Shown: positions 27,269 to 32,598, counted from the stretch's first letter. The stretch is 64,000 bases of DNA from a phage (GCA_025823825.1 GCA_025823825.1_4720.1); one strand, 5' to 3'. Program-made: numbers and translations. Notes: generated by a model from the sequence alone, not told the origin.

Positions 27269-27802
27269 TTAAGCTCCTTTGTGTTTTACGGACGATGTTA
27301 ACCAGGACGATCTTACCGTGAAACCCTCAGACTCGTAGAACGCCTGGGCTTCATCATTGTCGGCGCGAACATCCAGACCGATAGAATGGCCACCGCACTG
27401 GTAAGCGATGTTGCGCGCCTCATTCATCAAGGCATGGCCGATCCCGCGTCCGCGATATTCGGGTTTTACAATAATCGATGTAACGTCATGAATGCCCATA
27501 TGGCTCTCTGTATTCACTTCCAAGAGGCCTACCGGCATCGAAGCGATAGCATCGATCATAACGACCAACATTGCAGTATCTGGTAAACGCTTTTCTAATT
27601 CTAAAGCATCGTACTCGCGTTTTAAATCGGGGATATTCTCAAACATAAACGTGGTAGCCCATGCCTCTGATTCTACATCGTCGAGAATACGGTACAGCTC
27701 ACGAATCTGTCGTTTATGTGGGTAAAGGTGTGGATCGGCAGCCGTTGAGGCGATAACGCAATAGAACGGTCGTTCATTAATAACTACTGTTTTGATGCTC
27801 AT
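27269..27802 (-). CDS. GNAT family N-acetyltransferase
   Basis: Acetyl-CoA binding motif IVKPEYRGRGIGHALMNEA and C-terminal AQAFYESEGF. Confidence 0.7.
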   Translation of the reverse strand: MSIKTVVINERPFYCVIASTAADPHLYPHKRQIRELYRILDDVESEAWATTFMFENIPDLKREYDALELEKRLPDTAMLVVMIDAIASMPVGLLEVNTESHMGIHDVTSIIVKPEYRGRGIGHALMNEARNIAYQCGGHSIGLDVRADNDEAQAFYESEGFTVRSSWLTSSVKHKGA

Positions 27803-28305
27803 GCTAAAATTCCCTCATTACCTAACAGTCGATTACGATGACGTCGGTACATTTGACAAAGTGTTGTGATTTGATAATGTTTGTTATAACGTAATTCGAT
27901 ACGTTTTTGCACCTCTTTCCATGAAAGTTTATCGTATTGCCGATAACGATGGATTTCATTTAACATACGAAGACGAGTAGGATCGGTGTTCTTTATCGTC
28001 GTGAGCTTCACACGTTGATATCCACGCTGTAGTCCCGATTCGGAATACGTGACGTCAAACTCATCTTGAATGATGGTAATGATCTCCCGCCACCGACGGT
28101 TCTCGCCGTCACGTAAATGGACAACCCGCGATAAGATATCGTTCCGATTACGATGACTCAGTTTAATGTTAAGCATTGAAGCAATCGCGCTAATTGCTCT
28201 CTGACTCCGTCCTAACGCTTCACCTATTTCTTTCGATGTCATGACGCCCGCGTTTCGGCGTATGAATGCGATTTCGGTTGTTGTGTATTCTTTACCTGCT
28301 GCCAT
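27799..28305 (-). CDS. double Myb/SANT-like HTH protein, array member 1
   Basis: Two repeats of ...EIGEALGRSQRAISAIASMLNIK... type; overlaps neighbour starts. Confidence 0.6.
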   Translation of the reverse strand: MAAGKEYTTTEIAFIRRNAGVMTSKEIGEALGRSQRAISAIASMLNIKLSHRNRNDILSRVVHLRDGENRRWREIITIIQDEFDVTYSESGLQRGYQRVKLTTIKNTDPTRLRMLNEIHRYRQYDKLSWKEVQKRIELRYNKHYQITTLCQMYRRHRNRLLGNEGILA

Positions 28306-28769
28306 TTCTTACCACGTGTGTTATAATAGTAACGCTGACAAAGATGTGTGTGATGATACTCCCGTTTGAACTCGACGCTGATAATGCGAGCAACTTCTCT
28401 CCAGTTAACTCCTTCATGCCGAAGTGCTGTAATACGGTCTGAAATTTTGCACCATTCATCTGGATCGTATCGTCGTAGTTTGAGTCGTCGTATTACGGAG
28501 GCGACACTCGCTCTCGATCGACCAAGATGATTTGACAGTTGTTTAACCGAGTATCTGTGGATATTGTCACGAATATAGGAAATCTCGTTGTCCGTATATG
28601 CCTCATTGGTTCTCGACGAAGGGAACAGCATATACAACTTATTCTTAATCGCGCTTTCTGTGCGTTGAAATACAGAAGCCAGCTCACTAACCGGTGGTCT
28701 GGGTATCTGGTCCGCGTAATACTCGAGGCGCGAGAGTTCCTCATCTGTCCAGCGACGACACTTGCGCAT
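28239..28769 (-). CDS. double Myb/SANT-like HTH protein, array member 2
   Basis: WTDEELSRLEYY... and QLSNHLGRSRASVASVIRRLKLRRY; start set at ATG 28769. Confidence 0.6.
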   Translation of the reverse strand: MRKCRRWTDEELSRLEYYADQIPRPPVSELASVFQRTESAIKNKLYMLFPSSRTNEAYTDNEISYIRDNIHRYSVKQLSNHLGRSRASVASVIRRLKLRRYDPDEWCKISDRITALRHEGVNWREVARIISVEFKREYHHTHLCQRYYYNTRGKKWQQVKNTQQPKSHSYAETRAS

Positions 28770-29244
28770 GGGCAACTCCTTTGTTTTTCGTGTAGTAACA
28801 CCAACGTTGATACAACGCATGTTTATTCGTTGTAATCCCAAATTTAACAACAACGTCGTATGTGATAACATTCCAATTTTGGGTAACGTTAAGTCGTTCC
28901 GCGATAAACGCGATAATCGCTTCCCGTTCTTGCTTGGTTAGCGCACGACGAATTCTATTAAGCCGTATAAACTGACGAACCGAGTCATACGAACGGTTTA
29001 AATCGTACGCAATCTCCCTCAGCGATTTTTGTTTGATTACCGACTTGATGTACGCGCGTTCTTCTTCCGTATACGGTCGATGCTTTTGACGTTGACGTAT
29101 TCCCAAACGTCCCAGACGCGCGTCGATGCTGGCGCGTGTTCGTCCTGTCCGTTGTGCGATTTCATCAATCGTCAGCGACGTGTTCAAATACAGGTGTGTA
29201 ACATCTTTTAACTCATCGTCACACCACGGCCGAGGTCGTCCCAT
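28741..29244 (-). CDS. double Myb/SANT-like HTH protein, array member 3
   Basis: WCDDELKDV...EIAQRTGRTRASIDARLGRLGIRQR and SLREIAYDLNRSYDSVRQFIRLNRIRR. Confidence 0.6.
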   Translation of the reverse strand: MGRPRPWCDDELKDVTHLYLNTSLTIDEIAQRTGRTRASIDARLGRLGIRQRQKHRPYTEEERAYIKSVIKQKSLREIAYDLNRSYDSVRQFIRLNRIRRALTKQEREAIIAFIAERLNVTQNWNVITYDVVVKFGITTNKHALYQRWCYYTKNKGVAHAQVSSLDR

Positions 29245-30203: not shown

Positions 30204-30215
30204 AATGCCACCCCA

Positions 30216-30536
30216 TCAACGTCTTACTTTAAGCGGTATCTTGTTTCGAAAACAATAACACCGGATGGCATGTACGCTACGATTCATTATTTCAGCAATC
30301 TCTTTTAGCGTATGTTTCTTTGCAAGCGTGGCAACCCTAACCCTTTCTTCTGGCGTATATACTCCCCCACGAGGTGGTAGGTCACCCCGTTGTTTTCTCA
30401 ACTTGATGTAACGTGCGCGAACAGAGCACGGTGTTCGGTTCATGCAGCGCGCTACTTCTTTATAGCTCGCTTTTGGTGACGTGCTAAGAATAAGCAGCAG
30501 TGTTTCATCTTCTTTATCCGTCCAACATTTACCCAT
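30216..30536 (-). CDS. double Myb/SANT-like HTH protein, array member 6
   Basis: [13 protein letters not shown]...[26 protein letters not shown] and [24 protein letters not shown]; start set at ATG 30536. Confidence 0.6.
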
Positions 30537-32598
30537 CTTTTCTATTCTCCTTAACCTTATCAATCATCGAAATAAGCATGTTGATACTTTCTTCTTCGTT
30601 ATCGGTTGCATCCCAGTCTTGGATAACGGGAATCCCCAACGCTTCAGCTTTCGCGAGTTTACTACCGGGATTACTTCCACAGACAAGAACCGTTGTGTTT
30701 TTACTTACACCGCTTGTGATTGTGGCTCCCATGGTCGCTAAACGCGTGGCGAGTTGGTTTCTATCGATGTTGTTGAAACTTCCCGTGATAACGACTCGCG
30801 TATCTAATAACGGTAACTGATTCATTTCGCGTTCCTTAACTGGAGCTGGCGCTACACCGACATCGTACAACAAATCGAAGATATATCCGCGATTTGCTTT
30901 ATCGTAGATGTACGTTAGGATCTGATCGGCTGTGATCTCACCGATACCTTCAACTGCGAGTAAGCTTTCTTTATCAGCAGCTAAAAAGCTATCCACCGTC
31001 TTAAACGCGTTGGCAAGATCGCGCGCTGTGCTTTTACCTACTGTAAGAATACCTAACCCGTAGATGAAACGTGCTAACGTAGTCTCTTTTGATTTCTGAA
31101 TAGCGTCGATAACCTTGAAGGCGCTATAATCCGTAAACCCTTCCAGTTGGCTAACCTGCTCACGAGTTAACAGATAGAGATCAACCGCAGATTGCACCAA
31201 CCCACAGTTGTAGACCTGTTCCAAGAACCGTTCGCCAACACCTTCGATATCCATGACGTCACGACTTACCCAATGAATAAGACGCGCTACCGCTTGGTCA
31301 GGACAAGTTCCGGTTGCAGGACAACGCCAACGCGCTTCATTTTCCTTTTTCGTCAATACTGTCCCGCAGGTTGGACAATGGGTTGGAAAAATGATTTCTT
31401 TTCTTTCCTCTCCGGGACGCACACTCACGATTTGAGGAATGACGTCACCCGCGCGGCGGATAACAACATCATCACCAATGCACACACCTAACCGTTTTAT
31501 TTCGGCTTCGTTATGCAGCGTGATGTTGCTTATCGTTGTGCCTCCAACGAACACAGGTTCGACGCGAGCCACAGGCGTGATGCTTCCGGTTCGACCTACT
31601 TGAAAATCAACATCAAGCAAACGGGTGGCTTTTTCTTGCGCTGGGAATTTCCATGCGCGCGCCCAACGTGGTGCGCGAGAGGTTGCGCCGAGCTTCTCCT
31701 GCATCGCGACGTCGTTCAGTTTTATCACCATACCGTCAATATCAAACATTCGGTGCTCGCGTCCTGCAAGTATATCGCGATGCACCGTAATTAACGCTTC
31801 AGTCCCAACGACGATATGCGATTCGTTAAATAGACCTAATCCTAATGCGGCAACAAACCCCATTTTTGATCCCTGCGTTGCAAACGTGTAAATATTACCA
31901 CCATCCATGAAAACATCGTAAGGGCAGAACAACAAACGACGTTTTGCAACGGTTTGTGGATCCAAACGTCGTAACGTACCTGATGCCGCGTTACGTGGAT
32001 TTACGTATGGTTTTTCATTGTTTGCGATGAGTTCCGTGTTCAGAAGTTCGAATGCTTTGTGTGGCATCAACACTTCACCGCGGACTTCGATTTTCTGCGG
32101 CATTAATGTTCCCATCTTCGATTGCGGTAAAACACCCATTACCGTACGAATATTCGATGTGACATCTTCGCCTTGAACACCATCGCCGCGGGTTACTGCA
32201 CGTTGCAACAGGCCATTCTCGTAATGAATCGCAATTGCTAATCCGTCGTATTTAGGTTCGACCAGATATTCAAGAGTGTCTTCTGCTACCCCTAAGGTTT
32301 TTGCGATGGACTCCGTCCAATTCCGCAACTCTTCTTCACTGAACAGGTTATCCAAAGACATCATCGGAGACGGATGCTTCACCGTCTCAAAACCATCGAC
32401 CGGTGTACCTACACGACGGGTTGGGCTGTTAGGTGAAACCAGGCAGGGATGTTTTGCTTCATATTCCCGTATCGTTTTCACCATGTTGTCGTATTCTTCG
32501 TCGGTGTATTTCGGTTCCGCTTTAACATGGTAATAGTAATCAGCTTCAAGGATCGTATCGATGAGTTTAAGATAGTCTAATACGGCAGTGATTTTCAT
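30529..32598 (-). CDS. ligA: NAD-dependent DNA ligase
   Basis: Adenylation motif EPKYDGLAI, Cys4 zinc finger CPTCGT...[10 protein letters not shown], full LigA-like length (689 aa). Confidence 0.9.

Follow-up and report, generated by a model that had tools for sequence, protein, structure and literature searches.

The 64-kb stretch of phage DNA analysed in this study (GCA_025823825.1; hereafter the window) carries six consecutive minus-strand genes, P1 through P6, located between a gene for a NAD-dependent DNA ligase and a gene for a GNAT acetyltransferase (Table 1). A first-pass annotation made from the sequence alone had described this arrangement as a tandem array of diverged, double-domain Myb/SANT-like helix-turn-helix (HTH) proteins, and had proposed it as something novel. 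Closer analysis confirms that the six genes are present as described and that their products are related multi-HTH proteins. In addition, five of the six genes form a sharply bounded, hyperdivergent cassette among phages that are otherwise closely similar.

Escherichia phage vB_EcoM_Goslar is a nucleus-forming jumbo phage of E. coli that belongs to the Chimalliviridae (chimalliviruses). The window is about 96% identical to Goslar, and the DNA of the array region is 96.2% identical to that of Goslar (NC_048170). P1 through P6 are the counterparts, in order, of Goslar gp119 to gp114. In RefSeq, five of these Goslar genes are labelled 'hypothetical proteins' and one is labelled 'SANT/Myb domain-containing protein'.

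Six genes built from helix-turn-helix modules

Pairwise BLASTP comparisons (20-38% identity, E values from 2e-28 to 1e-4) reveal that P1 through P6 are mutually homologous, with P6 connecting to the other paralogues via P2 and P5. The copies are therefore as strongly diverged as the first-pass annotation had judged them to be, and the old duplication that it proposed fits with the observation that no DNA-level repeats are left between the six genes. When hidden Markov models (HMMs) of the modules were used in a six-frame scan of the 64 kb, these six open reading frames (ORFs) alone were found to carry modules. P1 and P6, which were left out of HMM building, score with E values of 3e-14 and 6e-8 to 6e-11, respectively.

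The domain architecture was established from a multiple alignment, the module HMMs and hhalign. The two A-type modules, A1 and A2, share homology (hhalign probability 95%, E value 4e-8; cross-HMM E values down to 1e-9), and the two-repeat signature noticed earlier, whose quoted example peptide is located in P2, is thus significant. Two copies of this ~45-amino-acid module are present in P1 through P5, but P6 carries one A-type and two C-type modules instead. The earlier description of double-domain proteins also missed a third three-helix domain, C, in P2 through P5. The architectures are A1-A2 for P1, A1-A2-C for P2 through P5, and A2-C-C' for P6. Module C is distinct from A and has been seen so far in this group alone. 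Homology between C and A was considered and rejected as undetectable (hhalign probability about 1%, cross-HMM E values above 0.05). The position-1 orthologues in four other loci (L009_1, L011_1, L002_1 and L015_1, where L numbers designate the loci used for comparison) are longer, at 152-157 amino acids, and include module C. In the window and in Goslar, P1 is therefore a C-terminally truncated A1-A2-C protein.

An AlphaFold2 model of P4 comprises three 3-helix bundles (predicted local distance difference test score, pLDDT, 83.6), in agreement with the three-helix fold that structure prediction had been expected to confirm. The predicted template modelling score (pTM) of 0.50 points to a flexible domain arrangement. 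Linkers between the domains are rich in Arg and Lys, all six proteins are basic (isoelectric point, pI, 9.9-10.3), and the recognition helices differ among the six paralogues.

The modules are three-helix bundles in which helices 2 and 3 form the HTH, and their assignment to a Myb/SANT or sigma-region-4 type is supported by Pfam matches above threshold for some of the proteins. P1 scores 35.5 bits with Myb_DNA-bind_6 and 32.6 bits with Myb_DNA-binding (thresholds 22.9 and 24.4), and P3 has a Myb match of 29.8 bits on its C module (residues 104-151). Myb scores for P2, P4, P5 and P6 are below the gathering threshold (PF00249, PF13921). Sigma70_r4_2 matches P2, P3 and P4 with 35.9, 27.1 and 26.7 bits (cut-off 25.7), and HTH_23 matches P1 with 27.6 bits (threshold 24.6). 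HTH_38, GcrA and Terminase_5 score below their Pfam thresholds. For GcrA (PF07750), whose N-terminal DNA-binding domain has the fold found in the A modules, the scores are 15.1 and 13.2 bits against a cut-off of 26.9 and cover only profile positions 2-60 of 155. NCBIfam sigma models reach 12-20 bits against cut-offs of 43-323, with matches to the region-4 part alone and none to sigma region 2. The regularly spaced Trp/aromatic triad of Myb domains (about 18-19 residues apart) is not kept: A modules retain the first Trp alone (W7 in the A2 alignment) and have Ile, Ala or Leu at the other aromatic positions, and the aromatic residues of the C module (W124...F135...W/Y148) are spaced differently from those of Myb. 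Because sigma-region-4 and HTH_23 models score as well as Myb models, these comparisons place the family at the superfamily level only.

Profile comparisons indicate where the closest relatives of the array proteins lie. All six match phrog_323, 'transcriptional regulator, D5-like', over profile positions of about 92-270 of 319 (E values from 1.1e-9 to 2.8e-19; 1.6e-17 for P2). This name derives from the RefSeq annotation of Listeria phages B054 (gp65) and B025 (gp44), and no experimental work on phrog_323 was found in the literature searched. Cbp2 (2lvs_A) is also matched by the family profile, in an alignment that takes in the linker and both A modules (E value 3.5e-9), as are c-Myb (E value 2e-4) and, with an E value of 0.2, the GcrA DNA-binding domain. 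The first-pass annotation had allowed that the proteins might belong to a well-characterised family such as the terminase small subunit or a transposase HTH; the terminase and transposase matches are sub-threshold or at the level of the fold only, and the six proteins are not placed in the terminase small subunit family. There is no Pfam match to an HNH catalytic domain in the array proteins; phrog_1891, phrog_8446 and phrog_7545 are matched over the HTH part only, and a distant relative, P0034, carries an HNH motif.

Two gene starts warrant correction. The start of P1 is most likely the ATG at 30536, which is also the start of Goslar gp119, and not the TTG at 30563 assigned in the first-pass annotation. 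Goslar gp114 is annotated as a protein of 147 amino acids, and the first HTH helix, YTTTEIAFIRRNAGV, lies upstream of that annotated start. Because this helix is kept in all relatives of P6, including one that is 70% identical and those from phages with a shorter P5 and no overlap, the RefSeq start probably cuts it off, and the 168-amino-acid form is favoured. Overlapping stops and starts had been ascribed to all members of the array. Such overlaps are present at three of the five internal junctions (26 nucleotides for P3/P4, 29 for P4/P5 and 67 for P5/P6), but P1/P2 and P2/P3 are spaced by 12 and 13 nucleotides. The C-terminal tail of P5 overlaps the start of P6 in another frame, and is missing from the 152-154-amino-acid alleles of L010 and L002. 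Sigma-70-type promoters and intrinsic terminators are not found above chance in or around the array, nor are any tRNAs, and the six genes therefore look to be co-transcribed with their neighbours.

Table 1. Positions of the array genes, the bordering genes and the hyperdivergent cassette in the window.
Feature	Position	Strand	Description
NAD-dependent DNA ligase	30529..32598	-	Upstream of P1 with 8-nucleotide overlap; conserved left border in all Goslar-like loci
P1	30216..30536	-	106 amino acids; ATG start with good Shine-Dalgarno sequence; orthologue of Goslar gp119; A1 at residues 1-42, A2 at 60-100
P2	29736..30203	-	155 amino acids; Goslar gp118; A1-A2-C
P3	29219..29722	-	167 amino acids; GTG start; Goslar gp117; A1-A2-C
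P4	28741..29244	-	167 amino acids; Goslar gp116; A1-A2-C; protein modelled with AlphaFold2
P5	28239..28769	-	176 amino acids; Goslar gp115; A1-A2-C plus C-terminal tail
P6	27799..28305	-	168 amino acids; Goslar gp114; A2-type at residues 5-47, C at 53-93, C' at 123-157
GNAT acetyltransferase	27269..27802	-	Downstream of P6 with 4-nucleotide overlap; conserved right border
Hyperdivergent cassette (P1-P5)	28250..30450 (approximate)		From sliding identity profile, per-gene amino-acid identity, saturated synonymous substitution (dS) and nonsynonymous substitution (dN) of 0.49-0.59, versus 0.04-0.08 in the flanks

Evolution, distribution and surroundings of the array

In ten Goslar-like loci, the array is located between the ligase and GNAT genes and the architectures are the same. 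Copy number is five or six, with position 2 missing from L002 and position 1 missing from L010. Each array gene is under purifying selection, with ratios of nonsynonymous to synonymous substitution (dN/dS) of 0.07-0.30 between the window and Goslar.

Comparison with L002 and L010 reveals a different pattern of divergence. Nucleotide identity to these two loci falls abruptly to about 50% within the segment that spans P1 through P5, and then recovers. In the flanks, identity to L002 is about 80-98% on both sides; for L010 it is about 66-86% towards the ligase and about 84-95% towards P6/GNAT. At the protein level, P1 through P5 are 36-70% identical to their counterparts in L010 and L002 (dN 0.22-0.59 for P2 through P5), versus 91-93% for P6 (dN 0.03-0.08) and 84-99% for the other genes of the 16-kb neighbourhood (dN 0.03-0.08 for the ligase, GNAT and orf142 genes). 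An exception among the neighbours is a 94-amino-acid ORF with 68% identity to its L010 counterpart. P6 is the conserved member of the array, being 89-99% identical across the ten loci.

Synonymous sites are saturated inside the cassette, whereas dS is 0.3-0.9 relative to L002 in all three flanking genes. This difference indicates that the cassette alleles are old and were brought in by recombination, rather than merely evolving fast in place. For the ligase gene, dS is 1.6 relative to L010 and 0.29 relative to L002. When allele types are defined at a threshold of 85% identity, there are four for P1, two for P2, four for P3, three for P4 and three for P5, versus one each for P6 and the ligase. 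Combinations of alleles are mosaic; for example, L011 combines a P1 of the L009 type with P2 and P3 of the L010 type. A hyperdivergent, recombining cassette of this kind among near-identical phages lends indirect support to the earlier suggestion of proteins under selection to track variable targets.

Within one allele type, the third helices are less variable (14 of 159 sites) than helices 1 and 2 (52 of 306; Fisher p 0.017). Helix 3 of A2, the presumptive recognition helix, hardly varies at all, with 1 of 50 sites variable versus 17% in helices 1 and 2 (Fisher p 0.002 to 0.017). Low variability of this kind would be expected if helix 3 is the functional reading head.

A gene at the edge of the cassette also varies among these phages. 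In Goslar, an additional gene, gp120 (235 amino acids; 8743-9450 of L001), lies between the ligase gene and gp119, and the window is without this gene at the corresponding junction (about 30529-30563). The gp120 protein is without the HTH module, is annotated as 'hypothetical', and has no precomputed Pfam domain. Goslar, L010 and L015 have the gene, whereas the window, L016, L017, L009 and L002 lack it, which makes it a presence/absence polymorphism.

To assess the distribution of the family, 1.84 billion representative proteins were searched exhaustively, and 11,838 of them match the A-module family profile (E value <= 0.001). The strongest matches outside Goslar-like phages are proteins of 300-900 amino acids with 4-10 tandem A modules, and are strong members of phrog_323. 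Among the best 150 of the 11,838 matches, full-length matches are found only in five proteins of 154-176 amino acids, and in a sixth protein, P0069, the alignment runs to profile position 161 and takes in the greater part of module C. Those full-length matches that were traced or compared are Goslar-like. Homologues of P6 were found in Goslar-like contigs only, a locus search with P6 recovered Goslar and one other IMG/VR contig, and tblastn of P4 in the phage collection recovered Goslar only. The A module is thus common, and A1-A2-C proteins, P6 and the six-gene array turned up, in the searches run, only in Goslar-like phages. Nothing was found in the literature searched on Goslar gp114-gp119, nor on an expansion of Myb-type HTH proteins in chimalliviruses. 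We have not found the arrangement or its evolutionary behaviour described, but the domain family is not novel as the first-pass annotation had proposed for the array (phrog_323, more than 11,000 proteins).

Two relatives outside this group differ in context. Genes gp79-gp80 of Pantoea phage vB_PagM_AAM37 (L018 3004-3646), located just upstream of the lysis genes, are adjacent small genes recovered by a tblastn match to an A-module repeat protein; small tandem sets of A-module genes therefore also exist in unrelated phages. A 268-amino-acid relative (L004 8001-8807) has A modules on both sides of a central domain. It is encoded near ArdA and large polyvalent-protein domains (LPD11, LPD29), in a context that suggests a conjugative element or plasmid more than a phage.

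The Goslar-like phages cluster tightly and have been encountered mainly as 'persistent' phages in bacterial assemblies (10.1101/2024.12.31.630880). In the window, the ligase and P1 are both 100% identical at the amino-acid level to a contig from the E. coli draft assembly GCA_012441205.1 (L016), which makes it probable that the phage was sequenced together with a bacterial isolate in which it was a 'persistent' infection. No megablast match to the locus was obtained in complete RefSeq E. coli genomes.

Two of the genes near the array were considered as possible functional partners. The GNAT protein is generic and RimI/SpeG/PaiA-like by its PDB and NCBIfam matches, among which acetyltransferases of the TacT/AtaT type are absent. 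A toxin-antitoxin pair composed of P6 and the overlapping GNAT gene was rejected on the basis of this assignment, and because P6 is not a ribbon-helix-helix (RHH) or DUF1778 antitoxin. Farther upstream, a Dam-like D12-class N6-adenine DNA methyltransferase is encoded at 33871-34698 on the minus strand (Pfam E value 2e-60). Its gene is present in the window, L016, L002 and L009, and is absent at this position from Goslar, L010 and L017. A link to adenine methylation via the GcrA-like fold was rejected for now, since the presence of the methyltransferase is independent of the array allele types.

Several other features of the window were recorded. Two adjacent small ORFs on the minus strand (38270-38596 and 38608-38976) give weak matches to the A-module HMM (E values 0.01-0.05) and no Pfam match, and may encode unrelated HTH proteins. 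A repeated element with a GC-rich hairpin (CTCCTCC...GGAGGAG) is located at 5889-5944, 11028-11055 and 45110-45165, followed in two copies by TTATGCTGTTAT(G/T)CT, and may mark terminator/promoter junctions of phage transcription units. A 44-nucleotide direct repeat with 77% identity (TCACnTAAGTAATATAGCCGTGAAA...), found at 23267-23310 and 53303-53346, may be a regulatory motif; at least its first copy is at a gene boundary. Finally, a diverged 124-nucleotide direct repeat with 73% identity (9560-9683 and 10322-10445, 762 nucleotides apart) may mark another paralogous gene pair.

Possible roles of the array proteins

With confidence only slightly better than even, we hypothesize that P1 through P6 are co-transcribed, sequence-specific DNA-binding regulators with allele-specific targets. 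Each protein would form a 'beads-on-a-string' chain of tri-helical HTH domains, in which the third helix of each domain is placed into successive major grooves of double-stranded DNA and the Arg/Lys-rich linkers tether the domains. This binding mode would resemble that of c-Myb R2R3, of the bipartite domains of Pax and Tc3, and of Cbp1/Cbp2. Because the recognition helices differ among the six proteins, six different sites would be read. The proteins might regulate or organise DNA transactions on behalf of the phage, with transcription the most plausible of these, and our default expectation is that they regulate phage (or early host) transcription. P6 would be the conserved core member, and P1 through P5 would be an exchangeable specificity cassette with several anciently diverged allele types. 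The reshuffling of these types among near-identical Goslar-like phages suggests that targets or partners are allele-specific.

Several considerations weigh against this hypothesis. Three-helix domains of the SANT and sigma-region-4 types can bind proteins rather than DNA. In addition, P1 through P6 cannot be core chimallivirus transcription factors, because these proteins were not found outside Goslar-like phages, and hypervariability would be unusual for regulators of conserved phage promoters. A repeat search across the window yielded no candidate operator family tied to the array, and searches in and around the array itself gave no candidate binding-site repeats. Lastly, any late role on the host chromosome is constrained by the loss of most host DNA to degradation within 60 min of infection (PMC9891218).

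The same mechanism of DNA binding could serve a different purpose, although we regard this as unlikely. P1 through P5 might recognise DNA in conflicts with other genomes or with host immunity, for example by silencing or excluding co-infecting relatives in a heteroimmunity-like manner, by controlling a persistent carrier state, or by evading or decoying host sensors, with allele diversity held by frequency-dependent selection. Sharp borders, two to four old allele types per position in mosaic combinations, and the presence or absence of P1 or P2 beside neighbours that are 84-99% identical are consistent with such a role, as are the finding of Goslar-like phages mostly as persistent infections (10.1101/2024.12.31.630880) and the match of the window to an E. 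coli draft assembly. However, PADLOC gave no meaningful match to known defence or anti-defence models. There is also no direct signal of positive selection, given that dN/dS stays under 0.3 in the short-range comparison and synonymous sites are saturated in the long-range one, and recombination is pervasive in these genomes anyway, as is evident from the two ligase dS values. Our expectation is lower still that P1 through P5 constitute a combinatorial 'DNA-recognition identity' system, in which allele-typed sites would decide which genome is expressed, replicated or silenced. Such a system would act in incompatibility or heteroimmunity between co-infecting relatives or as a persistent-carrier switch, with P6 as an invariant core factor.

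Three further explanations each have some support and fit less well than regulation by sequence-specific binding. It is improbable that the proteins are abundant, non-specific 'histone-like' factors that coat the phage genome in the phage nucleus or compact host DNA, with the number of paralogues providing dosage or redundancy. Proteins that are small and very basic (pI about 10), with a flexible multi-domain architecture (pTM 0.50) and with genes for DNA metabolism (ligase and methyltransferases) as neighbours, would suit this task. In contrast, domains of this type usually belong to sequence-specific binders (Myb, GcrA, Cbp2, Tc3), and the recognition helices vary between paralogues and are conserved within an allele type. 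Dosage paralogues would moreover be expected to be similar, yet these are 20-38% identical and share no DNA similarity.

A role as protein-binding adaptors that dock on phage or host RNA polymerase or on other proteins, in the manner of anti-sigma-like or appropriator-type factors, appears more doubtful still. It is suggested by the Sigma70_r4_2 matches of P2 through P4 and by the example of GcrA, which itself acts through contact with sigma-70 (PMC5887438). However, it is DNA-binding portions of known proteins that match best (the GcrA DNA-binding domain, Cbp2, Myb R2 and Tc3), the proteins are without the sigma-interacting domain of GcrA and without other sigma regions, and their strongly positive charge, together with the basic linkers, speaks for binding to nucleic acid. 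Least probable of all is derivation from homing endonucleases that have lost their nuclease, as selfish remnants or 'anti-homing' site protectors at a recombination hot spot by the ligase gene: the A module is indeed the N-terminal DNA-binding part of HNH endonucleases (phrog_1891, phrog_8446, phrog_7545; P0034), P1, P2 and the gp120-like gene are polymorphic for presence, and divergence has sharp borders as around homing-endonuclease genes, but none of the six proteins has a nuclease domain or HNH motif, ten loci retain the six orthologous positions and their architecture, purifying selection acts on all six genes, and no nuclease-bearing family member is encoded elsewhere in the window.

Chimalliviruses transcribe with their own multisubunit RNA polymerases, and we know of no report of a sequence-specific transcription factor in this group. 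The six multi-HTH proteins provide concrete candidates for that role. That one member is conserved while five reassort suggests that the target recognised differs between otherwise near-identical phages, which could bear on superinfection, competition and the persistent infections of Goslar-like phages. If the proteins prove to be ordinary regulators, the analysis still leads to a re-annotation of five 'hypothetical' Goslar genes and to a corrected gp114 start.

Comparison with known systems

The array proteins resemble several characterised or annotated HTH systems in part. GcrA (PDB 5YIU; PMC5887438) and the GcrA-like proteins of phages (phiCbK; PMC3556154) differ from the array proteins, which are without the C-terminal sigma-70-interacting domain, have tandemly repeated domains, and include a C module with a different, generic HTH fold. 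Myb/SANT proteins such as c-Myb R1R2R3, Cef1/Cdc5, SNAPc4 and Reb1 are set apart by the Trp triad that the array modules do not keep.

Among phages, a precedent is provided by Bacillus phage G-like jumbo phages, for which Iyer et al. described expansions of RsfA-like, Myb-type HTH transcription factors (PMC7824862). Phage G is not a chimallivirus, its proteins belong to another subfamily, and neither a tandem six-gene array nor a hypervariable cassette has been described there. Both cases are nevertheless lineage-specific expansions of Myb-type HTH proteins in a jumbo phage, which in phage G were interpreted as phage-specific transcription factors. The multi-repeat proteins of phrog_323 share the module itself (W-T-x-E-E...EIAxxLgR(T/S)xx(A/S)(V/I)xxR). 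In contrast to these long polypeptides, the Goslar-type proteins are split over six genes and have two A modules (one in P6) plus C, and they cover only positions of about 92-251 of the 319 in the phrog_323 profile; the C module is left uncovered by the other matches among the best 150.

The archaeal proteins Cbp1 and Cbp2 offer a parallel in construction. Cbp2 has two HTH domains with a basic linker and binds CRISPR repeat DNA, and Cbp1 has three repeats (PMC3597662; PDB 2LVS). The array proteins likewise consist of imperfect tri-helical HTH repeats linked by basic segments, and the NCBIfam model HTH_Cbp1 (NF040595) spans three domains of P3, although weakly, and the scores obtained with this model (17.8 and 14.3 bits) are far below its cut-off of 140. 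Cbp1 and Cbp2 are chromosomal proteins that bind CRISPR repeats, whereas the array is encoded by a coliphage without CRISPR, and its C module is not detectably homologous to A. By analogy of construction, Cbp1 and Cbp2 are likely to be mechanistic counterparts of the array proteins, in which linked HTH domains would read a longer DNA site.

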